In this document: one piece after another, positions 1 through 26,702 of the stretch
How the letters are laid out: every line of letters begins with the position of its first letter
Position numbering within the stretch: the first letter of the stretch is position 1
Assembly: GCF_000021865.1 (NCBI RefSeq)
Contig: NC_014034.1
Location: forward strand, 2,610,001-2,642,000
DNA length: 32,000 nucleotides
Direction of reading: 5' to 3'
From: Rhodobacter capsulatus SB 1003
GTDB taxonomy: Bacteria; Pseudomonadota; Alphaproteobacteria; Rhodobacterales; Rhodobacteraceae
Translations under genes and position numbers: made by a program
The notes under the pieces: model-generated
What the model was told of the DNA's origin: nothing
The model's database searches: none
The model's input: only the letters and a program-made list of their open reading frames with translations

Positions 1-396
1 CAGAAACAGCGGCCCCGAAAGACCGAGGGACAGCACCTCCTCGGCGCACATCGCCGCCAGATGCAGATGGGTCTTTGCCCCGGGCTTCACCACCATATGC
101 CCCGAGCGCAGGCCGTAAAGCGGCTGATCGGGGCCGAGTGCCGCGGCCAGCGCCGCAAAGGGCGCATAGCCCTGACAACTCCAGATCAGCGGCGGGCGCG
201 AGCCCGCGACATTGACCCCGAAGATCAGCCCGTTCGCGCTGACCACCTCGCCCCGCCACCAGGGCCTTGTGACCGCCGCGATCTTCTTGCGCAGATCGGC
301 CACAAGCGTCGGATCGATCAGCCCCGCCCCGACGGGGGCGGCGGCGGCGGCGGCGGCCGGGCTGTCCTGCGGGGCGGGAGGCGCGATCTTGCTCAT
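1..396 (-). CDS. Thioesterase-like alpha/beta hydrolase. Only the N-terminal 132 codons are present; the gene continues past the left edge.
   Basis: The minus-strand frame is open from the ATG (complement of 394-396) to base 1. It is not in the ORF track because it is truncated. There is an ATGA overlap with the stop of the upstream gene (393-395). The translation MSKIAPPAPQDSPAAAAAAAPVG...SRPPLIWSCQGYAPFAALAAALGPDQPLYGLRSGH...LSGPLFL resembles the N-terminal part of PKS/NRPS-associated thioesterase domains. The nucleophile elbow would lie outside the window. Confidence 0.5.
   Translation of the reverse strand, partial: MSKIAPPAPQDSPAAAAAAAPVGAGLIDPTLVADLRKKIAAVTRPWWRGEVVSANGLIFGVNVAGSRPPLIWSCQGYAPFAALAAALGPDQPLYGLRSGHMVVKPGAKTHLHLAAMCAEEVLSLGLSGPLFL
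337..357. repeat. (GGC)7 trinucleotide repeat encoding Ala7 in the N-terminal linker of the thioesterase-like gene
   Basis: Read directly: ggcggcggcggcggcggcggc at 337-357. On the coding (minus) strand this is GCC x7, giving PAAAAAAAP. Confidence 0.9.
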
Positions 397-1859
397 GTTC
401 GCCGCAACCAGCCGTTGAAGTTGAACGTGGCATTATAGCCGAAGCGGTCGCAAGACTGCGTGTCGATCTCGTAATCGGCGCCGCGGCGGGCCAGAAAAGC
501 ATCGATCGCGCGCGAGGGCGGCGACAGCGCCGAGGCCACCGCCGCGCTGTCGGCGGCGTCGCGAAACGCGCCATCCTCGATGATCACGTAATCGCCCCGC
601 GTCAGATGCGGATCGACATAGTCCAGAACCGCGGTGCAGGTCGCCTCGTCATGGGCGGAATCCTCGATCACCAGCAGCGGATGGCCAAGGCGGCGCAGCT
701 CCTCGGGCGGCAGCACCCGCGCCAGATCGCGGGCGTCGCCGATGCGGGCATCGACCTGCGGATGCGCGCTGGGGGGGCGCGGCAACAGATCGATGCTGAT
801 CACCGGCCCGGGCAGGCCCAGCGCCACCATCATGTCGGCCAGCCATTCGGTCCGCCCGCCTTCGAGACTGCCGATCTCGATCACCGCGGCCGGTTTCAGC
901 TGCCCCAGCAGCGCCAGATAATTCGCCATGTCCAGCGGGTTGAGCAGCATCGCCCGGCCCTTGTAGCGATAGTCAAGGCTGCCCTTGAGCAGGTCGGTCA
1001 GCACTGCGCCGGGCAGCGCGCTGGAAAATTCCCGCGCCCCGCCGCCCTGCCCCGCCGCCGGTCTTGGCCCCGATCCCGCGGGGGCCAGCATCGGGCGGCT
1101 GGCATCAAGCCGTTCCAGCTCGGCGATCTTGCACAGGCTGCGCAGCGGGGGGCTCAGTTCCAGCCCGCCCAGCACCGCCGAGAGCGCCCCCTCGCGGTCC
1201 GCCGCCAGCCGCGGCTGCGGCACGATCACCGCCAGACCGAACAGAAGCGGCAGCCAGACGACATGAAACTCTGCCCCGCGTCCGGCCAGAAAATCCTCGA
1301 TCGCGGTCTTGACGCCATTGCGCGGACCGCCCTCCTCCACGGCATGGGCAAAGCCCGCATTGTGCCCCCCCGGCGAAAGGCCGCGTTCCCGCGGCAAGAG
1401 CCCGCCGATGCGATGGGGCTGGCGATGCGCGGCGGGGATGCGGTCGGGGCAATAGTAAAGATCGCGGCGCGCATAGGGCCATTCGACATCGTGGCAGATA
1501 GTGATCGGCGCATCGGGTGCCAGCGGGCCGTCGCCGCCGTAGATCGCCTGCAGCTCGTGATACATCGTGTACCAGTTGTGGTCGCCATCCAGCAGCACGA
1601 CATCGGCGGGCAGAAGATCGCCCAGCACGTCCAGGCTGGGGCGCGGGTGAAACACCGCCACCCCGGCGAAGCGGTCGCACAGCCGCGCCACCTCGGGCCC
1701 CGGTTCGGGATCGACGATGTCAAGCCGCGCCCCGGCGGCCTTGGCCCAGCCGGCCAGAAACCGGGAATGGCGGCCCGCATCGGCGCCGACCTCGATCACG
1801 CGGCGCGCTTCGGCGGCGTCCAGAATGGGTTTGACGACACTGGGCCAGAATTGGAACAC
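393..1859 (-). CDS. Tandem methyltransferase-fold protein. The N-terminal half is a class I SAM methyltransferase (Methyltransf_24-like). The C-terminal half is CmcI / cephalosporin-hydroxylase-like.
   Basis: 488-codon ORF with a GTG start at 1857-1859 and GGAG about 9 nt upstream. N-half motifs: VIEVGADAGRHS and LLDGDHNWY. A Pro/Gly-rich linker follows. C-half motifs: YRYKGRAMLLNPLDMANYLALLGQLKPAAVIEIGSLEGG, VIEDSAHDE and YVIIEDG. Confidence 0.8.
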   Translation of the reverse strand: MFQFWPSVVKPILDAAEARRVIEVGADAGRHSRFLAGWAKAAGARLDIVDPEPGPEVARLCDRFAGVAVFHPRPSLDVLGDLLPADVVLLDGDHNWYTMYHELQAIYGGDGPLAPDAPITICHDVEWPYARRDLYYCPDRIPAAHRQPHRIGGLLPRERGLSPGGHNAGFAHAVEEGGPRNGVKTAIEDFLAGRGAEFHVVWLPLLFGLAVIVPQPRLAADREGALSAVLGGLELSPPLRSLCKIAELERLDASRPMLAPAGSGPRPAAGQGGGAREFSSALPGAVLTDLLKGSLDYRYKGRAMLLNPLDMANYLALLGQLKPAAVIEIGSLEGGRTEWLADMMVALGLPGPVISIDLLPRPPSAHPQVDARIGDARDLARVLPPEELRRLGHPLLVIEDSAHDEATCTAVLDYVDPHLTRGDYVIIEDGAFRDAADSAAVASALSPPSRAIDAFLARRGADYEIDTQSCDRFGYNATFNFNGWLRRT

Positions 1860-1880: not shown

Positions 1881-3656
1881 TCACGACTTGCGCCAGAAGG
1901 CGCCCGTCCAGTCGATCATGCCAAGCGGCGCGGTGATGCCGCGCGCGGCGCGGAAGCGGTCCACCGCCAGCGCGCATTGGCCAAGGGCGCCGTAATCGTC
2001 GATGATGACGAAGCCCCCCGGCGCGACGCGGTCGTAAAGCGCCTCCAGCGCCTGCAGGGTGGAGCTGTAAAGATCGCCATCAAGCCGCAGCAGCGCCAGT
2101 TTTTCCACCGCGCAGCCCGCCAGCGTGTCGGCAAAGAAGCCGGGCAGGAACCGCACCCGCGCATCGAGCAGGCCGAAATCGGCAAAGGCCCGCTCCACCC
2201 GCGCCTGCGACACGGCCAGCGCCGGGGCGCGCTCGCGCGACAGATCCAGCCCCTCGTCTTCGGGCAGCGCGGGCGGTGGCAGCCCGGCAAAGGAATCCGC
2301 CACCCAAAGGCTGCGGTCCTGCGCCCCGGCCAGATCGAGCATCGCCTTCATCAGCAGGCAGGCCCCGCCGCGCCAGACCCCGCATTCCATCAGATCGCCC
2401 GGCACCGCCTCGGCCAGGACGGTGGCGACGCAGTCCTGCAGATGGTCCAGCCGCCGCCGCCCGATCATCGTATAGCCCAGCGGCGGACCGGCCTGCGCGG
2501 TCAGCGTGTCAAGCCCCTGCGCCCGCAACCGCCGCTTTTCCGCCAGCGCCGGGGCCAGCTGGCCGGGCACGTCGTAAAGCGTCTCGCTCCAGAAGGCGGG
2601 GGGGATGTCCTTTCGGCCCCGCAGCGCATCCAGCGCAACCTCGGTTTCCAGCCCGGTCTCGTTCAAAAGCACCGCCTTGAGCAGGTCGAGATAGCGCTCG
2701 CCCGCCTCGGGGCCGGGCCGCAAGGGCGTTGCCGCCGCGCGCGGGGGGGCCGTCTGCGCCGCGGCAAGCTGGCGGGCGTAAACCTCGGCGGCGCGGCGCG
2801 ACACCGGGCCGAAATAGCTGCGCTCGGTATCCACGACCCGGATCCGGCCGCGCAGGCGGTAATATTCCTTGGCGGCGCGCTTGTGCACCTCCAGCGCGGC
2901 GGCCCCGGCATTCGTGTGGGTGCCGCCATGGATCTGATGAAAGATCCCCTCGCCCAGAACCACCACCTGCCGCGTGCCCGGATGTTCCAGCGCGCGCCAG
3001 AGCAGATCGGCATTGGCCGCCCCGCCGCCCGGGCTTTCGAAGGCCGGATCGAAGCCGCCCAGCGCCTCCCAAAGAGCGCGCGGCAGGAACAGCAGATTGC
3101 TTTCGCTGAGCGGGCCGAACCAGCCGCGCCGGACATTCTCGGCAAAGGGGCTGATGTCGAACAGCCGGTAGCCGTCGGCCTGCCAGTCGATCCCGGCCAG
3201 CAGCCGGTCCTCCCAGGCGCTGTCATAGCCCTGCTGCTGGGTCAGCCATTGCGGCCCCGGCCCGATCTGGAACGAGAGCGTGCTGACGACCGGCATCGGA
3301 TCGGTCCGCGCCGCGCGGCGACAGGCCTCCAGCAGGCCGGGGCTGGCCATCCGCGCGCCGTCGATGCTGACGCCGATCAGCGGCGCCGCCGCAAGGCCCA
3401 GCCCGTGGTTGATCGCCCGCACCGGCGAGGGCGTCGGATCGGCAAAGCGCTCGATCCGCAAATTCAGGCCCAGATCGGCGAAATCCTCGGCCCGCGGCGG
3501 CTGGCGCGAGCCGTTGTCGATCACGATCACCTCGTAATCCTCGGCGGCGATGCCCTCCTGATAGCGCGGCGACAGGCTGTAAAGCGTCCGCGGCAATTCG
3601 CGCGCCATCTCGTGGCTGATCACGATCAGGCTCAGCTCGGGCGGCTTGCGGGTCAT
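1881..3656 (-). CDS. Bifunctional fusion of a family-2 glycosyltransferase (N-terminal) and a TylF/macrocin-type O-methyltransferase (C-terminal)
   Basis: 591-codon ORF. Its ATG overlaps the ACP stop (ATGA at 3653-3656). N-terminal motif: LSLIVISHEMARELPRTLYSL...YEVIVIDNGS (GT-A/GT2). C-terminal motifs: GDLMECGVWRGG, ADSFAGLP, LRLDGDLYSST and GGFVIIDDYG (TylF family hallmarks). Confidence 0.85.
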   Translation of the reverse strand: MTRKPPELSLIVISHEMARELPRTLYSLSPRYQEGIAAEDYEVIVIDNGSRQPPRAEDFADLGLNLRIERFADPTPSPVRAINHGLGLAAAPLIGVSIDGARMASPGLLEACRRAARTDPMPVVSTLSFQIGPGPQWLTQQQGYDSAWEDRLLAGIDWQADGYRLFDISPFAENVRRGWFGPLSESNLLFLPRALWEALGGFDPAFESPGGGAANADLLWRALEHPGTRQVVVLGEGIFHQIHGGTHTNAGAAALEVHKRAAKEYYRLRGRIRVVDTERSYFGPVSRRAAEVYARQLAAAQTAPPRAAATPLRPGPEAGERYLDLLKAVLLNETGLETEVALDALRGRKDIPPAFWSETLYDVPGQLAPALAEKRRLRAQGLDTLTAQAGPPLGYTMIGRRRLDHLQDCVATVLAEAVPGDLMECGVWRGGACLLMKAMLDLAGAQDRSLWVADSFAGLPPPALPEDEGLDLSRERAPALAVSQARVERAFADFGLLDARVRFLPGFFADTLAGCAVEKLALLRLDGDLYSSTLQALEALYDRVAPGGFVIIDDYGALGQCALAVDRFRAARGITAPLGMIDWTGAFWRKS

Positions 3657-3901
3657 GCGAGCAGGCCGCTTTCGCGCAGATCGGCGATCAGCTCGTCGAT
3701 CGTGGCATTGCGCAGGACCAGCGTCGCCTCGATCTCGGTGCCGAAATGTTCTTCCATCGCGCCCGCCATCACCACCGCATCGACCGAGTCGATCCCGAGG
3801 TTGTAAAATGGCGCATCGCCGGTGATGGCGGTCGCCTCTGCCCCCGTGAGCGACACGAGAAAATCGGTGATCCAGGTTCTGACGGCGGTTTCATTCAGCA
3901 T
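3653..3901 (-). CDS. Stand-alone acyl carrier protein (82 aa)
   Basis: Internal ATG at 3899-3901 with GAGG 5 nt upstream. The translation MLNETAVRTWITDFLV...PFYNLGIDSVDAVVMAGAMEEHFG carries the phosphopantetheine-attachment motif LGIDS. The longer 232-aa track ORF would overlap the P450 gene. Confidence 0.8.
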   Translation of the reverse strand: MLNETAVRTWITDFLVSLTGAEATAITGDAPFYNLGIDSVDAVVMAGAMEEHFGTEIEATLVLRNATIDELIADLRESGLLA

Positions 3902-3939: not shown

Positions 3940-5148
3940 TCAGACCTGCACGGGAAGATTGGTCATGCGGCGCTGGTTGTGCAGCGCCCGCCAGCCGGGC
4001 CGGTCGATGCACAGCCGCGGGCGCGGCCCGTCCAGCACGGTGCCCAGCGCGATTTCGGCCTCCATCCGGGCGACCCAGGCGCCCAGGCAGTGATGCAGCC
4101 CGCCGCCAAAGGATTGCACCGGCCGCCCGGTGCGCCCGGGCAGGTAAAGGTCGGGGTCGGGATAGGCCTGCGGATCGCGGTTGGCGGCGGCGATCATCAG
4201 CACGATCTGCTGGCCCGCCCGGATCTCCTGCCCGGCCAGGGTCATGTCGGTGGCGGCGCGGCGGCGGACCTGCTGGATCGGCGCCTCCAGCCGCAAGGCC
4301 TCTTCGGCGGCACTGGCCAAGAGCTTCCGGTCCGCCGCGACGCGGTCGCATTGATCGGGATGGTCGAGCAGCAGCCAGAGCGCATTGCCGATCAGCGCCG
4401 AGGTGGTCTCGAAGCCCGCCATGAAGACGAAACTGGTCAGGGCGGTCAGCCGGTCGTCGTCAAAGGGCGCCTCGGAGGCGTCATTGCGGCTGACCAGAAG
4501 CGACAGGCCATCGTCCCGCGGCGCAAGGCGGCGGGCCGTGATCTCGGCGCGCAGGAAGGCATGGGCCTCGGTCAGGCGCCGTTCGGCGGCGCGGAAATCG
4601 CGGATCGAGGCGCCGCGGTTGAGGATCACCGGCACCCCCGAAAGCGTCTTCGCCAGCCAGAGCGCATCGGCATCGGCCAGCCCCAAAAGCCAGCCCATGA
4701 ACAGCGGCGGCAGCGGATCGGCAAAGCCGGTCATCAGATCCAGACCGCCGTCGCGGACCAGCGGCGCATGAAGGCTGCGGGCGATGCGCGCCACCTCGGC
4801 GGCGCAGGCGGCCTGCGGGCGCAGCGCCAGAAGCCGCGCCACCAGCGCGCGCAGCGGCCCATGCGCGGGCGGGTTGCGGAAAAAGATCGCCATGTCAAGC
4901 AGCCGCAACAGCTCGACCGGGTGGTCGCCCAGCGCCTGCGAGACATCGGCGACGAACTGCCCCAGATCCAGCGTCAGCAGGCCGGGGTTGCAAAAGGCCG
5001 CGCTGACCTCTTGATGGCGCAGCAGCACCCAGGCCTGTTCGGTCTCGGTCCAGAACACCGGCGCGCGGGCGCGCAGCTGCGCGTAGACCGGATAGGGGTC
5101 GTCGCGCAACAGCGGCGCAAGACTGTTGAACGATCCAAAATCAACCAT
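3940..5148 (-). CDS. Cytochrome P450 monooxygenase (402 aa)
   Basis: ATG at 5146-5148 with AGGAGG 5 nt upstream. Heme-thiolate loop FGGGLHHCLG, I-helix AGFETTS and ExxR (EALRLE) are all present. The start overlaps the stop of the ligase gene by 8 nt. Confidence 0.9.
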   Translation of the reverse strand: MVDFGSFNSLAPLLRDDPYPVYAQLRARAPVFWTETEQAWVLLRHQEVSAAFCNPGLLTLDLGQFVADVSQALGDHPVELLRLLDMAIFFRNPPAHGPLRALVARLLALRPQAACAAEVARIARSLHAPLVRDGGLDLMTGFADPLPPLFMGWLLGLADADALWLAKTLSGVPVILNRGASIRDFRAAERRLTEAHAFLRAEITARRLAPRDDGLSLLVSRNDASEAPFDDDRLTALTSFVFMAGFETTSALIGNALWLLLDHPDQCDRVAADRKLLASAAEEALRLEAPIQQVRRRAATDMTLAGQEIRAGQQIVLMIAAANRDPQAYPDPDLYLPGRTGRPVQSFGGGLHHCLGAWVARMEAEIALGTVLDGPRPRLCIDRPGWRALHNQRRMTNLPVQV

Positions 5149-6874
5149 CGGAACCTCCTGAAAATGAAAGATGATCTGTCTTCGTGACCGGGCAGCGGGC
5201 CAGCTCTCCGGCCAGATGGGCGGCGCGGCAGGCGCCGCGGCGGATCTTGTTGCTGGTGGTGCGCGGCAAGGTGCCCGGCCGCACCAGCACGACTTCAAAC
5301 GGGCGCACCCCGAAGCCCTCGCAGATCGCCGCCGTGACCGCCTGCGCCGCCAGATCCAGCGCCGGATCGGCCTGATGGCCGCGCCGGACCTCCTGCACCA
5401 CGACCAGCGCCTCGGCCCCGTCTTGCGGCACGGCAAAGGCGGCGGCAGTGGCGGAAAGCGCGGGATGGGCGCGGGTGGCGGCGGCCTCGATATCCTCGGG
5501 GTGGTGCTTGGCGCCGCGGATGATGACGATATCCTTCAGCCGCCCGACGACGGCCAGCCCCTCGCCCCGCATCTGCCCCAGATCGCCGGTGCGCAGGAAG
5601 GCCGGGCCATCCTCGTTCGCGATCCGCGCCCCGAAACTGTCCCGGCTGCGGTCGGGCTGCTGCCAGTAGCCCGCGCCGACATGCGGCCCGGCCACCCAGA
5701 TCTCGCCCACCTTACCCTCGGGCAGGCGTTCGCGGGTTTCGGGATCGACGATGGCCAGCTGCTGCCCCGCGGCGCCAAGGCCGCAGATCACCCGCTCGGG
5801 CTGGTCGGCAGATCCGGGCAGCGTGGCAAGCCCGCTGCCCGCCGGCCCGCCCGAGACGAAAAGCGTCGTCTCGGCCATGCCGTAACAGGGAAACAGCGCC
5901 TTCGGGTCGAAGCCCGCCGGGGCAAGACGGGCGGCGAAGCGGCGCAGATCCTCGGCCCGGACCGGCTCGGCGCCGCAAAAGGCGACGCGCCAGCTGGAGA
6001 GGTCAAGGCCCTCGATCTGCTCGGGGCGCAGGCGCTCGGCACAGAGCGCATAGGCGAAATTCGGCCCGCCGCTGCTGGTGGCGCGGTGGCGCGCGATCGC
6101 CTGCAGCCAGCGCAGGGGCCGCTGGATGAAATCCATCGGCGCCATCAGCACCGTCTCGGCCCCCAGATAAAGCGGCTGCAGCATCCCGCCGACCAGCCCC
6201 ATGTCGTGAAACAGCGGCAGCCAGCTGACCATCCGCGTCGTGCTGTCATGGCCAAAGGCGCGGCGGATCATCTCCATGTTGGCGATCAGATTGGACTGGG
6301 TGACGATCACCCCGCGCGGATCGGCGGTCGAGCCCGAGGTATATTGCAAGAAGGCCGGATCTTCGGGTTGCGGCGGTTCGGGTTGCGGCGGATCGCCCGC
6401 GGGGGCGGGCCCGTCGGTGGCGATCCAGTCCAGATCGGGCCGCAGCGCGGCCACCGCGTCGCGGATCGTCGCCTCGGCGGCCAGCGCAGCCGAACACAGC
6501 ACCAGACGGGGCCGCGCATCGGCGGCAATCGCGGCGATCCGCGGGGCAGAGCGCGCAGGCGTGATGAAGGGCGTCGGCACCGCGATGGCGCCTGCGTAAA
6601 GACAGGCCCAGAAGCCGATGACAAAGGGCAGACCCGGCGGATAGACCAGAAGCACGGTCCGCCCGCGCGCGCCCCGCGCCAGCAGCTCGGCCGCCCAAAG
6701 CCGGGCCTGACGGTCAAGCCCGGCATAGGTCAGGCAGGTCCCCTCGCCCTCGCCGCGGTCCAGAAACCGCAAGGCGATCTTGTCGGGGCAGTTCCGGGCG
6801 TGCCGTTGCAGCACCTGCGCCAAGGTGGCATCGGGCCGCGTGCCGGGAAGGCCCGGCGATGTCCCCTCTGTCAT
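5141..6874 (-). CDS. Fatty acyl-AMP ligase (FAAL-type adenylate-forming enzyme, 577 aa)
   Basis: ATG at 6872-6874 forms an ATGA overlap with the radical SAM stop. Motifs: FLQYTSGSTADPRGV, LPLFHDMGL, YGMAETT, LRTGDLG and GRLKDIVIIRGAKHHPEDIE. There is no fused carrier or condensation domain. Size and motifs resemble the FadD32/FAAL class. Confidence 0.9.
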   Translation of the reverse strand: MTEGTSPGLPGTRPDATLAQVLQRHARNCPDKIALRFLDRGEGEGTCLTYAGLDRQARLWAAELLARGARGRTVLLVYPPGLPFVIGFWACLYAGAIAVPTPFITPARSAPRIAAIAADARPRLVLCSAALAAEATIRDAVAALRPDLDWIATDGPAPAGDPPQPEPPQPEDPAFLQYTSGSTADPRGVIVTQSNLIANMEMIRRAFGHDSTTRMVSWLPLFHDMGLVGGMLQPLYLGAETVLMAPMDFIQRPLRWLQAIARHRATSSGGPNFAYALCAERLRPEQIEGLDLSSWRVAFCGAEPVRAEDLRRFAARLAPAGFDPKALFPCYGMAETTLFVSGGPAGSGLATLPGSADQPERVICGLGAAGQQLAIVDPETRERLPEGKVGEIWVAGPHVGAGYWQQPDRSRDSFGARIANEDGPAFLRTGDLGQMRGEGLAVVGRLKDIVIIRGAKHHPEDIEAAATRAHPALSATAAAFAVPQDGAEALVVVQEVRRGHQADPALDLAAQAVTAAICEGFGVRPFEVVLVRPGTLPRTTSNKIRRGACRAAHLAGELARCPVTKTDHLSFSGGSDG

Positions 6875-7834
6875 GCCGCCCCCCCTTGCGAAAACCGCGT
6901 CACCGCCTCGGTCGGGGGGCCAAGCCCCCAGTCCGCGCCCATCTCGCAGCGGTTGCAGACCGGCATCGCCGCCCGGCGCGTTTCCAGCGCCCGCAAGAAG
7001 GCCGCGCGCCGGTCCCCGGCCCGCAGCATGCTCAGGCGGTCCTGCCCCAGATTGCCAAGCAGCGCCGCCCCCGGATGAAAGCAGCATGGCACGATGTTGC
7101 CGCGATGATCGACGTAAAGATTGCCCGGATCGGCGGCGATCGCACAGCCGCCCGTGCCCATCGTCACCCGATCGCGGGCGCGGTCGCGCAGGCTGTCGGG
7201 CAGCTGGATCCAGCCGCGGAATTCGGGATGAATGCCGAAAGGCCCCAGCACCTCTCGCCAGCGCTGCCGGTACTCGGGCGCCTCGATCACGCAGCGCGCC
7301 TGCAGGCGCAGGGCCGGATATGTCGCCGCCAGATCCCGGGCAAAGGCCAGAAACGTCATCAGTTTCGACCACCTGGCCGGTGGCCGCAGGGCTTCGTAGC
7401 TGGCCGGCGTGCCGTCGCCGTCGCAGCTGACCGTCAGCAGATTGAGCGCCCCCATCGCCACCAGCGCCTCCAGCCGGTCGCGGGCCTCGGATTGCGCATT
7501 GGTGGAAATCTCCACCCAATGCCGCCGGATCGGGCTTTCCAGCAGGATCCGGCCCAGCTCTTCCAGCGCGGGATGCAGCAGCGGCTCGCCGTAGTTGAAC
7601 AGCCGTATCAGCGTGATCTTCGGCACGTCGATGTTGGACAGGCAGCGCGCGAACAGCTCGGGCGCGATGAACTCGGGGCGGGGATCAAGGCCGGAATTCG
7701 GGCAGCCGACACAGCGCAGCTGACAGCCGCCGACGATGTCGAAATGCAGCGTGGACAGCGACAGCGGCCTCCCGGCTCCCCCCCCCGGCCAAAGCCCCGG
7801 CCCGACTCGTCTGTCGCGGCGACGGATGTGTCAT
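6871..7834 (-). CDS. Radical SAM enzyme with a C-terminal SPASM/twitch-like Cys cluster. The N-terminus is out of frame at a G9 tract, so this is a possible frameshift, sequencing indel or phase-variable start.
   Basis: The core frame is open from 7830 to the stop at 6871-6873. Motifs: HFDIVGGCQLRCVGC (CxxxCxxC at 7702-7725), FNYGEPLLHP, ISTNA, VSCDGDG, then GGCAIAADPGNLYVDHRGNIVPCC...PVCNRC. No ATG/GTG/TTG lies in frame between the TGA at 7831-7833 and the Cys motif. The nearest ATG (7832-7834) is in another frame. The 5' boundary is therefore uncertain. Confidence 0.7.
7778..7786. repeat. C9 (plus strand) / G9 (coding strand) homopolymer, the longest in the window
   Basis: Read directly: ggct ccccccccc ggcc. 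It lies 17 codons upstream of the CxxxCxxC motif, at the point where the reading frames change. Confidence 0.95.
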
Positions 7835-8149
7835 GGGCTTTCGCAGCCTCCCGAAGTTGCGCAACCCGCGGCTGCAGATGGCGGACATGACCAAAGACGA
7901 CCCGGTCGGCTGGCTTGTTGATGAGTTTGCCCTTCAACACCGACCCCCGGACGTCTTTGGCAAAGGTCGGACCAACGGCGTCACGGCACAATCCGAAACG
8001 ACACGCCCCGCAGGACATGCCCGGCAAGTACAGGAAGACCATCGTAAATCCCGGTGGTCAAGGGGGATTCGTCGGCGCTTGCGCGGCGTCGCCCGCAGTT
8101 GCCACAGCCGCGGCAAGCACGCCCCGCGCCCCCCGGCCGTCGTCGCCAC

Positions 8150-8200
8150 GCATAAAAAATACCAAAACTCGATAAACGCAGTGGACTTTTTTCCGAAGAT
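8150..8200. promoter_or_regulatory. AT-rich patch, a candidate shared divergent promoter / Lrp-binding region
   Basis: This is the only AT-rich segment (cataaaaaataccaaaactcgataaacgcagtggacttttttccgaag) in the roughly 400-bp gap between the biosynthetic operon and the Lrp gene. No transcription start can be derived from sequence alone. Confidence 0.3.
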
Positions 8201-8239
8201 GGCATTCCCTTGCCAAAGACGCAGCTTCGGAGAGCCCGG

Positions 8240-8713
8240 ATGGCCCAGCTTGACCTGATCGACCGCAAGATTGTTTCTGAACTGATGCGCGACGCGACGC
8301 TGCCGGTGGCGCAGATCGCCGACCGGGTCGGGCTGTCGCAGACGCCGTGCTGGAAGCGGATCCAGAAACTGGAAGCCTCGGGGGTGATCGAAAAGCGCGT
8401 CGCGCTGGCCAATCCGCAGGAACTGGGGCTGGGCCTGACCGTCTTTGTCGCCATCGAGGCCCCCGATCACGGCCCGGAGTGGCGGGCCGCCTTTGCCGCC
8501 GCGGTCGAAAAACTGCCCGAAATCATGGAGGTCTGGCGCATGGCGGGGGAAATGGATTACCTGCTGCGCGTCGCGGTCTCGGACATGGCGGCCTATGACC
8601 TGCTTTACCGCCGCCTGACCGATGCGGTGCCGATCCGCAACATCACCTCGCATTTCGCGATGGAGCGGCTGCGCCACACCACCGCCTATCCGATCGACAC
8701 CAAAAGCTGGTAG
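8240..8713 (+). CDS. Lrp/AsnC-family transcriptional regulator (157 aa)
   Basis: ATG at 8240 with GGAGAG 5 nt upstream. The N-terminal HTH is LDLIDRKIVSELMRDATLPVAQIADRVGLSQTPCWKRIQKLEASGVI. The C-terminal part is an RAM/AsnC_trans_reg-like domain. Confidence 0.9.
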   Translation: MAQLDLIDRKIVSELMRDATLPVAQIADRVGLSQTPCWKRIQKLEASGVIEKRVALANPQELGLGLTVFVAIEAPDHGPEWRAAFAAAVEKLPEIMEVWRMAGEMDYLLRVAVSDMAAYDLLYRRLTDAVPIRNITSHFAMERLRHTTAYPIDTKSW

Positions 8714-9640: not shown

Positions 9641-10828
9641 ATGAACAGACGCACCATGCTCACCACCTCCGCGCTTGCGGTCGTGGCGGCGCTTTCGCTT
9701 TCCGCCACGCTGGCCCGGGCCGAGGAGACGCTGAAGATCGGCTTCGTCGGCGTCACCTCGGGTCCGGCGGCGGCCTGGGGCACCTCGAACGTGCGCTCGA
9801 TGCAGACGCTGGCGGCGATGCTGAACGAAAAGGGCGGCGTCGAGATCGGCGGCACCGCCTACAAGATCGAGATCGTCACCTTTGACGACCAGAAGGACCC
9901 CAAACGCGCGATTGCCGGCATGGAGCAGATGGCGCAGCAGGGCATCCATTATGTCGTCGGCCCGAATGTCGATGACGGCGCCGCCGCCGTGCGCCCGGTG
10001 GCCGAGACGAATGACATCATCTACATCCCCTATGCCTTCCCGAAGGAACTTTACACCAAGCCCGCCGAAAACGCGATCCTGGGCATGGTGGCCAGCTATC
10101 AATCCGGCCCGGCAATCTACAAATACCTGAAAGAAAACAAGGGCGTCACCAAGGTCGCCTTTGTCGCGGCGAATGAATCCGACCCGCTGAGCCAGCGCGA
10201 CAGCGGCGTTGCGGCCGCCAAGGCGCTGGGCCTTGAGGTGACCTCCGCGGACGTGACCTATCAGGTCGACACCACCGATTTCACCCCGGTCCTGCTGCCG
10301 GTGCTGAAATCGCAGCCCGACCTTCTGGTGCTCTCGGGCGTCGCCCCGGCCGCCGCGCCGCAGCTGATCCGTTCGGCCCGCGATCTGGGCTACACCGGGC
10401 TCATTTCGACCGAGACCGCGCAGGATGCCAAGGTGATCGAGGAAGGCGCGGGCGAGGCGGCGAATGGCTTCATCTCGGTCGGCGGCGCCTCGACGCCCGA
10501 GATCGCCTCGGATTACATGAAGGACTTCGTCGCGAAATACACCGAGATGTTCGGCGAATACAACGACGAGTCGAACACCAAGGTCTATGCGCTGGAATAT
10601 ATCCTGCAGACGCTGAAAGCCGATCCGAAGGGCCTGACCGACATTGCCGCCTTCAAGACCGCGATCGACAGTTTCGCCGCGCCGAACCCTAACATGAAGG
10701 GCGATGCGAAGCTGAGCTATGTCGGCACCACCTCGTTCGGGCAGAAGCGGCAGCTGTCGGTGCCGCTCGTGGTGAACGAATACAAGGACGGCGCCTTCCA
10801 GACGCTGTTCGTCGCCACCGTCGATTGA
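9641..10828 (+). CDS. Periplasmic substrate-binding protein of a Liv-type (branched-chain amino acid family) ABC importer
   Basis: ATG 9641 with AGGGAG upstream. Signal peptide: MNRRTMLTTSALAVVAALSLSATLARA. The mature part is Peripla_BP_6-like (LKIGFVGVTSGPAAAWG...). Confidence 0.9.
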   Translation: MNRRTMLTTSALAVVAALSLSATLARAEETLKIGFVGVTSGPAAAWGTSNVRSMQTLAAMLNEKGGVEIGGTAYKIEIVTFDDQKDPKRAIAGMEQMAQQGIHYVVGPNVDDGAAAVRPVAETNDIIYIPYAFPKELYTKPAENAILGMVASYQSGPAIYKYLKENKGVTKVAFVAANESDPLSQRDSGVAAAKALGLEVTSADVTYQVDTTDFTPVLLPVLKSQPDLLVLSGVAPAAAPQLIRSARDLGYTGLISTETAQDAKVIEEGAGEAANGFISVGGASTPEIASDYMKDFVAKYTEMFGEYNDESNTKVYALEYILQTLKADPKGLTDIAAFKTAIDSFAAPNPNMKGDAKLSYVGTTSFGQKRQLSVPLVVNEYKDGAFQTLFVATVD

Positions 10829-24733: not shown

Positions 24734-26026
24734 ATGGCCACACGCACCGCGCCGTTTTCCGGCTTCGAATTCCTGATCGCCTGGCGCTACCTGCGCGCCC
24801 GCCGCGCCGAGGGCGGCGTCAGCGTGATGACCTGGATCAGCCTGATCGGCATCATGCTGGGCGTGGCCGCGCTGATCATCACGCTGGCCGTGCGCGCGGG
24901 CTTTCGCGCCGAATTCGTCGACACGATCCTGGGTTCGAACGCCCATGTCACGGTCTATTCCGCGCCGATGGAAGTGGCGCCCGAGACCGGGATCTTTTCC
25001 AGCCTGATGCCCGATTACGCCGCGCGCGCCGCGCGGATCGCGCAGGTGCCGGGCGTCACCCGGGCGGCGCCGCTGATCCGGGGTCAAGTGATGGCGACGA
25101 TGAACGACCGCTCGAACGTCGCGGAAGTCTATGGGATTTCTTATGAAAACCTGATGACCATTCCCCGCGTCGCGCATTCGGCGCAGATCGACGGCGAGAT
25201 CGAAAGCTTCGGTCAGGGCATCGCCATGGGGTCGGAACTGGCGCGCGAGCTGGGCGTGGCGGCGGGCGACACGGTCAAGCTGATCTCTCCGAACGGGGTC
25301 AAGACGCCGTTTGGCGTCTCGCCGCGGGTGAATGCCTATACCGTCGTTTATGTCTTCACCGCCGGGCGCTGGGACATCGACCGCACCCGCATCTACATGC
25401 CCTTTGCCGAGGCCCAGAGCTTCTTCAACCGCGAGGGTGGCGCCGACGAGATCGAGGTGATGGTCAAGGACCCCGAGCATGTCGATGACCTGACGCCGCA
25501 GCTGATCGCGGCGGGGGGCGCGGGCACGATGCTGTGGTCTTGGCGCGATGCCTCGGGCAGCTTCCTGCGCGCGCTGACGATGGAGGACAACGTGATGTTC
25601 GTGATCCTCTCGGTGCTGGTCTTGATCGCGACGATGAACATCACCTCGGGGCTGATCATGCTGGTGAAGAACAAGGGCCGCGACATCGGCATTTTGCGCA
25701 CCATGGGGCTGACCGAGGGCTCGGTGATGCGGGTGTTTTTCCTCTGCGGGGCCTTTACCGGCACGATCGGGACGGCGCTGGGCGTCGGGCTGGGGGTGCT
25801 TTTCGCGCTCAACATCAGCCATGTGATGGATGCGGTGAACTGGGTCAGCGGCGGCGGCGCCTGGGATCCGTCGATCCGCGGCATCTATGAATTGCCTGCG
25901 AAACTGCTGCCCTGGGACGTGGCCAAGGCGGTCGTCCTGGCGCTGGGGCTCAGCTTCGTGGTGACGATCTTTCCGGCCCGCCGGGCGGCGCGGCTCAATC
26001 CGGTGGAGGCGCTGCGCTATGAATGA
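24734..26026 (+). CDS. lolE: Lipoprotein-releasing system permease (LolC/LolE family)
   Basis: ATG 24734 with GGGAG upstream. The N-terminus is [14 protein letters not shown]. It has a MacB-like periplasmic domain and a C-terminal FtsX-type helix bundle. It overlaps lolD by 8 nt. Confidence 0.9.
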
Positions 26027-26702
26027 GGTGTTGCGGCTTGATCGGCTCGAAAAGGGCTACAACCGGGGCAAGGCGAATGAAATCATCGTGCTGCGCGGGG
26101 CCTCGCTGGTCATTCCGCGCGGGCAGGTGGTGGCGCTTGTCGCGCCTTCGGGGGCGGGGAAATCGACGCTTCTGCATATTGCCGGGCTGCTCGACACGCC
26201 CGATTCCGGCCGGGTGATCGTGAACGGGCAGGATCTGACCGGGGCGAAGGACGCGGCCCGCACCGTCGCGCGGCGCGAGGCTTTGGGCTTTGTCTATCAG
26301 TTTCACCATCTGCTGCCCGAATTCACCGCGCTGGAAAACATCGTGCTGCCGCAGCTGGCCAATGGCACCGCGCGCAAGGCGGCCGAGGCCCGCGCGCAGG
26401 AATTGCTGGCGCGCGTCGGGCTGGCGGCACGCGCCGGGCACCGGCCCTCGGCGCTCTCGGGGGGGGAACAGCAGCGCGTGGCCTTTTGCCGGGCGCTGGC
26501 GAACCGCCCTGCCCTGCTTTTGGCCGACGAGCCCACCGGCAACCTGGACCCGACCACCTCGGAAACCGTGTTCTCGGCGCTGATGGAACTGGTGCGCGCG
26601 ACCGGGCTTTCGGCGCTGATCGCGACGCACAATCTGGAGCTGGCCGCGCGGATGGACCGGGTGTTGCGGCTGAGCGATGGCCAGCTGGTGGAGGCAAAAT
26701 GA
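26019..26702 (+). CDS. lolD: Lipoprotein-releasing system ATP-binding protein
   Basis: Walker [10 protein letters not shown], the LolD-typical block [20 protein letters not shown], signature LSGGEQQRV and Walker [12 protein letters not shown]. Confidence 0.9.

Follow-up and report, generated by a model that had tools for sequence, protein, structure and literature searches.

A one-base difference in a poly-G tract separates in-frame and out-of-frame forms of a radical SAM gene among Rhodobacter capsulatus SB1003-type datasets

The radical SAM gene and its operon

The window analyzed here is a stretch of 32,000 nucleotides of the R. capsulatus SB 1003 genome (NC_014034.1, positions 2,610,001 to 2,642,000), and all coordinates are positions within it. 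A gene encoding a radical SAM enzyme is the first of a conserved, tightly packed operon of seven genes on the minus strand. Its place at the head of the operon, proposed in a first-pass annotation of the sequence, was supported by gene content and by neighbor order in other genera. The order of genes 1 to 6 is shared by Sinirhodobacter, Nitrospirillum, Bradyrhizobium, Rhizobium, and Fuscovulum, in which the loci compared end within gene 6. The genes at the locus are as follows.

6871..7830, minus strand: open enzyme frame of gene 1, 319 codons, with a radical SAM core and a SPASM domain, BtrN-like (Pfam PF04055 and PF13186; family profile)
5141..6874, minus strand: fatty acyl-AMP ligase (FAAL), gene 2; its ATG overlaps the stop of gene 1 as ATGA, and the two are putatively coupled
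3940..5148, minus strand: cytochrome P450, gene 3
3653..3901, minus strand: acyl carrier protein (ACP), gene 4
1881..3656, minus strand: GT2 glycosyltransferase (GT) fused to a TylF-type O-methyltransferase, gene 5
393..1859, minus strand: double methyltransferase (Methyltransf_24 plus rhamnosyl O-methyltransferase/CmcI-like), gene 6
running off the window start, minus strand: 368-aa protein after gene 6, with no family assigned
8210..8713, plus strand: Lrp/AsnC-type regulator, divergent

The enzyme frame scored above the Pfam cutoffs for both the radical SAM core (PF04055, 31.3-31.6 bits versus 29.5) and the SPASM domain (PF13186, 29.8-30 bits versus 21.5), and Cys 230, 250, 251, 293, and 296 of the SPASM region were invariant among 30 homologues. 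The top NCBIfam matches lay far under their cutoffs (e.g., TIGR04317, 29 bits versus 380), and the gene was therefore assigned to an unnamed radical SAM subfamily. A single-sequence search of the PDB found nothing; only the family profile reached the closest solved relative, the radical SAM 2-deoxy-scyllo-inosamine dehydrogenase BtrN (PDB 4m7t; E=4.8e-12). Both proteins combine an N-terminal CxxxCxxC motif with a C-terminal auxiliary-cluster domain. However, the profile match lies mainly over the N-terminal third, and the enzyme described here has a Pfam SPASM domain and is encoded in a FAAL/ACP/P450/GT/methyltransferase (MT) operon.

The intergenic region between gene 1 and the divergent regulator (7835-8209) contains an AT-rich stretch at approximately 8145-8200, from which the minus- and plus-strand ORFs diverge. 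The leader at 7935-8075 (minus strand) is well conserved across divergent R. capsulatus clades, with frame-breaking indels further down, and its sequence suggests a role in regulation, as a leader or promoter region, rather than coding DNA. A riboswitch or a recognizable promoter was considered for this leader and set aside, as no Rfam match at an E value of ≤1 and no sigma-70 or terminator consensus was found. Likewise, a small upstream ORF (8152-8057) was rejected as a RiPP-type precursor, given its lack of conservation in DSM 1710 and SP108. At the opposite end of the gene (6871-6890), some 2025 complete-genome annotations (P0127, P0133) fuse the 3' end of the radical SAM gene to the FAAL gene. 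These fusions arise via indels in the G-rich ...CAAGGGGGGCGGCATGA stop/start overlap (also in locus L018), a short G run that is miscalled by long-read assemblies. A survey of the literature on the SRR read sets discussed below, on SB1003 resequencing, on Rhodobacter phase variation, and on the enzyme combination of the operon found no paper on the locus.

Reading frame and start of the radical SAM gene

The features that determine how the 5' end of gene 1 is read are listed below.

7847..7852, minus strand: GGGAGG, a Shine-Dalgarno-like motif 12 nt upstream of ATG 7834 (putative function)
7832..7834, minus strand: ancestral ATG of the radical SAM/SPASM gene as judged from homologue N termini and GC3, one base off the enzyme frame in the window
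7831..7833, minus strand: TGA closing the enzyme frame upstream and overlapping ATG 7834, read from the sequence
7778..7786, minus strand: poly-G tract of 9 G that lies 16 codons past ATG 7834 and contributes to a stretch of Gly codons in the variable N-terminal leader
7756..7758, minus strand: in-frame CTG (Leu26), a possible weak near-cognate start that would spare the whole conserved core, as suggested by sequence and alignment
7702..7725, minus strand: CxxxCxxC radical SAM cluster motif (CQLRCVGC), its columns invariant in 30 homologues
7685..7687, minus strand: TGA ending translation of the G9 allele from ATG 7834 (ORF 7685..7894 and frame translation)

The frame encoding HFDIVGGCQLRCVGC on the minus strand has its cluster Cys codons at 7725-7702, ends at TGA 6873-6871, and is closed upstream by TGA 7833-7831. 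ATG, GTG, and TTG are absent from all 36 codons between that upstream stop and the first Cys; these codons hold near-cognates only, namely, ATC 7827-7825 and CTG at 7764, 7758, and 7749. The earliest canonical in-frame start, GTG 7626-7624, is located 25 codons past CQLRCVGC. The first-pass annotation had reported a frame shut by TGA 7831-7833 without any start before the motif, a first in-frame start (GTG 7624-7626) about 25 codons beyond the Fe-S motif, and a G9 run at 7778-7786 between stop and motif, and all three statements were confirmed when the coordinates were rechecked. The gene models available for the reference are a 251-aa protein from GTG 7626 and a 318-aa protein from ATC 7827 (MRRRDRRV..., P0130).

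The number of G residues in the tract sets the product made from ATG 7834. With 8 G, this start yields MTHPSPRQTSRAGALAGGGAGRPLSLSTLHFDIV..., identical to the database protein P0122 (320 aa). With 9 G, translation from the same ATG stops at TGA 7687-7685 and gives a 49-aa product ending in ...AALCRLPEFRP.

Several lines of evidence bear on which reading is ancestral. All relatives start 25-33 residues ahead of the first Cys. The MTHPSPRQT read from ATG 7834 matches N termini found among the relatives (MTSPLPRQT, MTSALPRH, and MTSPLPPRT); those of R. capsulatus relatives are MTSPLPRQT, MTSALPRH, or MTHPSPRQT, with the shared pattern MT[HS]P[SL]PRQT. GC3 was highest in the ATG 7834 frame over approximately 7875-7815 and moved to the enzyme frame at the tract. 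In addition, GGAGG at the Shine-Dalgarno position was invariant in an alignment of five R. capsulatus strains and recurred at the remaining R. capsulatus loci inspected, and the RefSeq protein of G8 genomes (P0122, 320 aa) starts at ATG 7834. On the basis of the homologue N termini, the GC3 frame signal, and the conserved GGAGG, the ancestral and predicted functional gene is the 8-G reading from ATG 7834, with 320 aa. The first-pass annotation had named this reading (ATG 7832-7834 with eight G) as one of two ways to restore a start, and the exact product P0122 lends it further support.

The second way, ten G, by which the ORF from ATG 8042 would read through into the enzyme, held up mechanically, as the two frames do fuse, but not as a biological reality, as neither a homologue nor a product was found. 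When homologues were searched for the N terminus that they carry, the ATG 7834 start was recovered and the ORF-8042 part was carried by none. A search with the 390-aa conceptual fusion retrieved 313 relatives at a coverage of approximately 75%, and its N-terminal 88 residues were matched by none of them. No exact match to a G7, G10, or G13 fusion product was found in the sequence collection, and the ORF-8042 frame is interrupted by indels between strains. The fusion was therefore rejected.

We also considered whether the G9 form might still yield a functional enzyme, by initiation at ATC 7827 or CTG 7758, by a +1 ribosomal slip on GGG-GGG-GGG-A, or by RNA polymerase slippage. Decoding of G quadruplets and slippage on homopolymers are both known to occur, a 318-aa product from ATC is annotated for this genome (P0130), and CTG 7758 encodes the invariant Leu26 and lies 9 nt after GGGAGG 7773-7768. 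However, near-cognate starts are typically very inefficient, and ATC 7827 is without a Shine-Dalgarno motif at a useful distance. In the homologue comparison, neither the N terminus of the ATC frame nor the in-frame peptide HIRRRDRRVGPGLW resembled any homologue N terminus. All orthologues examined are single-frame from their own ATG, which argues against a conserved programmed shift, and the tract has no in-frame stop or rare codon as a stimulator. Nor does the arrangement correspond to prfB-type +1 programmed frameshifting, as the two-frame layout is not conserved and the 0-frame codon after GGG GGG GGG is AGC. Given single-frame orthologues and no stimulator, expression of the enzyme from G9 would amount to leakiness at most, and we regard a functional G9 product as very improbable. 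Ribosomal frameshifting, one of four explanations initially offered for the missing start, is not upheld for the same reasons.

Tract length across datasets

The G9 run at 7786-7778 had been described as the longest homopolymer in the window, and a sequence scan bore this out, the runner-up being a G8 run at 26459-26466. At the window G+C content of 67%, however, at least one G9 occurred in 52 of 100 dinucleotide-preserving shuffles (mean, 0.97), and the run is not beyond chance expectation. The finding thus rests on the position of the run and on its variation in length between datasets.

Two further observations concern G runs in the window. The G8 run at 26459-26466 (plus strand) is in frame and belongs to the codons for the LSGGE signature of a LolD-like ABC ATPase, whose gene spans 26019-26702. 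The coding strand at 7768-7801 (GGG CC GGGG CTTTGGCC GGGGGGGGG AGCC GGG AGG) has G runs sufficient for a G-quadruplex just past the start, and it is speculated that such a structure might favor polymerase stalling or slippage.

The tract lengths found were as follows (the G6 loci are L020, L001, and L002).

G8, in frame: Logan SRR3634671 and SRR6916991; assemblies VIBE01 and AYPR01 (loci L014, L015, L021, and L022)
G9, out of frame: the window; Logan SRR7644044 and SRR7644041 (L016 and L017)
G12, out of frame: CP198954.1 (L013), a noisy assembly
G11-C-G6, in frame: strain B6 (L019)
G6, 12 nt shorter, in frame: CP198951.1
G6 in a different linker, in frame: DSM 1710 and SP108

The exact G8 product (P0121/P0122), which otherwise matches the window protein with 100% identity, was indexed in 100 blocks and 97 contigs. 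Over 4 kb, one missing G was the sole difference between the G8 loci and the window, and the SRR7644044 contig differed from a G8 contig by 0 mismatches and 1 gap over 20,756 nt, all G7 runs included. In this comparison of assemblies, tract length thus differed, as G8 versus G9, between otherwise identical datasets. The out-of-frame 251-aa gene call was present on four Logan contigs, and the two that were examined come from runs with close accession numbers. Exact look-ups of the G5, G7, G10, G11, G13, and G14 products in the collection (approximately 100 datasets) found none, and a JGI metagenome scan for the tract flanks with a variable tract gave no matches. Two G9 runs with close accession numbers and no other lengths in the collection fit a stock-specific allele rather than random error.

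Three other bases (10691, 10690, and 3131), all within 18 kb, differed between the window and resequenced SB1003-type datasets. Positions 10690-10691 (minus strand) read TA in the window versus AG in L013, L023, L025, and L026, and position 3131 is C in the window versus G in L023, L024, L025, and L026. Probably, either the reference is in error at these bases or its clone has acquired changes of its own. Position 3131 falls in the GT/TylF gene and 10690-10691 in a gene for an ABC substrate-binding protein. SRR7644044 has the non-reference bases at 10691, 10690, and 3131, and the SRR7644041 contig, which spans only 3131, is non-reference there. The G9 runs match the G8 datasets at these other differing bases and therefore are real read sets and not copies of the reference.

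The 3.85-Mb assembly CP198954.1 contains two copies of the locus approximately 60 kb apart (L013 at ~2.73 Mb and L018 at ~2.67 Mb). L013 carries G12 together with two more homopolymer indels, and the second copy has G8 and 15 indel or substitution sites in 3.9 kb; the double locus is either a poorly polished real duplication or an assembly artifact. The homopolymer indels of CP198954.1 besides the tract are in C5/C6/C4 runs. Its G12 was considered as a third real allele and rejected because of the other homopolymer indels and the very noisy second copy.

It is unlikely, in our judgment, that every SB1003-type stock in truth has a G8 tract and that the G9 of the reference and of the SRR76440xx runs reflects homopolymer miscalls. 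Such an artifact would be in keeping with G8 in approximately 100 dataset blocks, with a reference that departs from the resequenced data covering it at three other bases in 18 kb, and with the clear homopolymer noise and implausible G12 of the long-read assembly CP198954.1. However, G9 was present in two independently assembled read sets, of which SRR7644044 otherwise equals the G8 contig over 20.7 kb, with all of its G7 runs. An error at the same base and in the same direction would be needed in both the reference and a whole run series. Other tract lengths were not found among the ~100 datasets. The simple assembly indel initially listed among the possibilities is likewise disfavored, since two read-set assemblies also carry G9. 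Judged from these sequence comparisons, the G9 form is most likely present in the reference as well as in one or more stocks that were sequenced independently.

The G9 allele and known homopolymer systems

Among the four explanations first offered, recent inactivation by a slipped-strand change fits best. We consider it probable that G9 is a real slipped-strand +1 loss-of-function allele of some SB1003-type stocks, the reference included. The common ancestral state in the SB1003-type lineage would be an in-frame G8 within a poorly conserved, Gly-rich leader, to which replication slippage would have added one G. Indeed, in-frame variants of this leader include G6 (12 nt shorter), G11-C-G6, and other linkers in other strains, and the segment between the conserved start and Leu26 appears to be slippage prone and tolerant of changes in length. 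In G9 stocks, ribosomes from ATG 7834 would leave the enzyme frame and terminate after 49 codons, so that the Fe-S enzyme would be lost. Approximately 290 codons would then go untranslated, and given this long untranslated stretch and the ATGA overlap, expression from the FAAL start and of the downstream operon genes would probably be reduced as well. The G9 state would be heritable and present in a minority of SB1003-type stocks, and a -1 slip could in principle restore the frame. We thus infer loss of function, polarity, and reversibility for this allele.

Some observations weigh against the slippage allele. The G9 tract was seen in assemblies, and the platform of SRR7644041 and SRR7644044 could miscall long homopolymers systematically. 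The other probable reference errors within 18 kb raise the prior of a reference error here, and as G9 occurs in one run series and the reference, it could reflect either a single event or two coincident errors. Against the loss of function, some enzyme could still arise from weak starts at ATC 7827 or CTG 7758 or from slippage of RNA polymerase or the ribosome on G9.

Poly-G tracts in surface-glycan genes are well known from the contingency loci of Neisseria, Haemophilus, and Campylobacter, where they are conserved across strains and over-represented in the genome and have measured high switching rates. The R. capsulatus tract resembles them in that the length of a poly-G run close to the 5' end sets the reading frame of a gene that is part of a glycoconjugate-type cluster. 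The tract might be an evolved contingency locus kept for bet-hedging, with a surface glycolipid-type operon ON at G8 and G11 and OFF at G9 and G12. The G9 tract, which exceeds a minimum of 7-8 bases for such loci, lies toward the 5' end of the coding sequence of the first gene, where a change of ±1 moves the gene in or out of frame, and the operon encodes glycosyltransferase and sugar-methyltransferase domains. ON and OFF lengths both occur inside one clonal lineage (as seen in assemblies), strain B6 has a longer tract (G11), and reversible homopolymer switching has been proven in R. capsulatus at copA. In contrast to the loci of those genera, however, the R. capsulatus tract failed the conservation test: the remaining R. 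capsulatus clades show G6 or another linker at this place, and the tract is missing outside the genus. Long tracts were likewise not over-represented, a G9 run being within chance (52 of 100 shuffles). Moreover, the OFF allele is confined to one run series and the reference, so that the data fit a single G8-to-G9 event; G12 stems from a noisy assembly; and the surface location of the product is a guess. We therefore think it quite improbable that the tract was maintained for switching. It seems equally doubtful that it is a contingency switch in a free-living phototroph, recently expanded from G6 to G8 to G11 in SB1003/B6-type alleles and toggling the rSAM-FAAL-P450-ACP-GT-MT operon. If it were, SB1003 lab stocks would differ in an unrecognized lipid or glycolipid product.

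To our knowledge, Mycobacterium tuberculosis is without canonical mismatch repair. Homopolymer-tract phase variation that recurs over thousands of genomes is reported for the M. tuberculosis complex (PMC10334774). The likeness lies in short coding G/C tracts in a G+C-rich genome and in frameshift variants among close isolates (PMC10334774), whereas approximately 105 datasets of one lab lineage, with one or two events, were compared here.

The closest parallel in the same species is the C10 tract of copA: changes to C9 or C11 inactivate copA and can be reversed under selection (Ekici et al. 2014, mBio, PMC3903287). Both genes have a G/C homopolymer of 9-10 bases in a 5' coding part, where a frameshift by a ±1 indel inactivates copA and is predicted to inactivate the radical SAM gene, and the copA changes were also found by comparing sequenced lab derivatives (PMC3903287). 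However, the copA switch was selected, PCR verified, and reverting under counterselection, whereas the slippage allele proposed here is represented by two lengths in different datasets only. The genome tracts listed in the copA paper (PMC3903287) are those of at least 10 bases, and the G8/G9 tract is not among them.

For annotation, the current 318-aa ATC model and the older 251-aa model, which lacks the Fe-S ligands, both work around a frameshift, and the real gene would be the 320-aa G8 form. With this tract, R. capsulatus has a second candidate homopolymer hot spot besides the proven copA C10; no new mechanism is involved. As regards work with SB1003, the reference probably carries a null allele of the operon's first gene, possibly with polar effects on the remaining genes. 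The gene is intact in most other sequenced stocks, and stocks may therefore differ in an uncharacterized lipid or glycolipid product.
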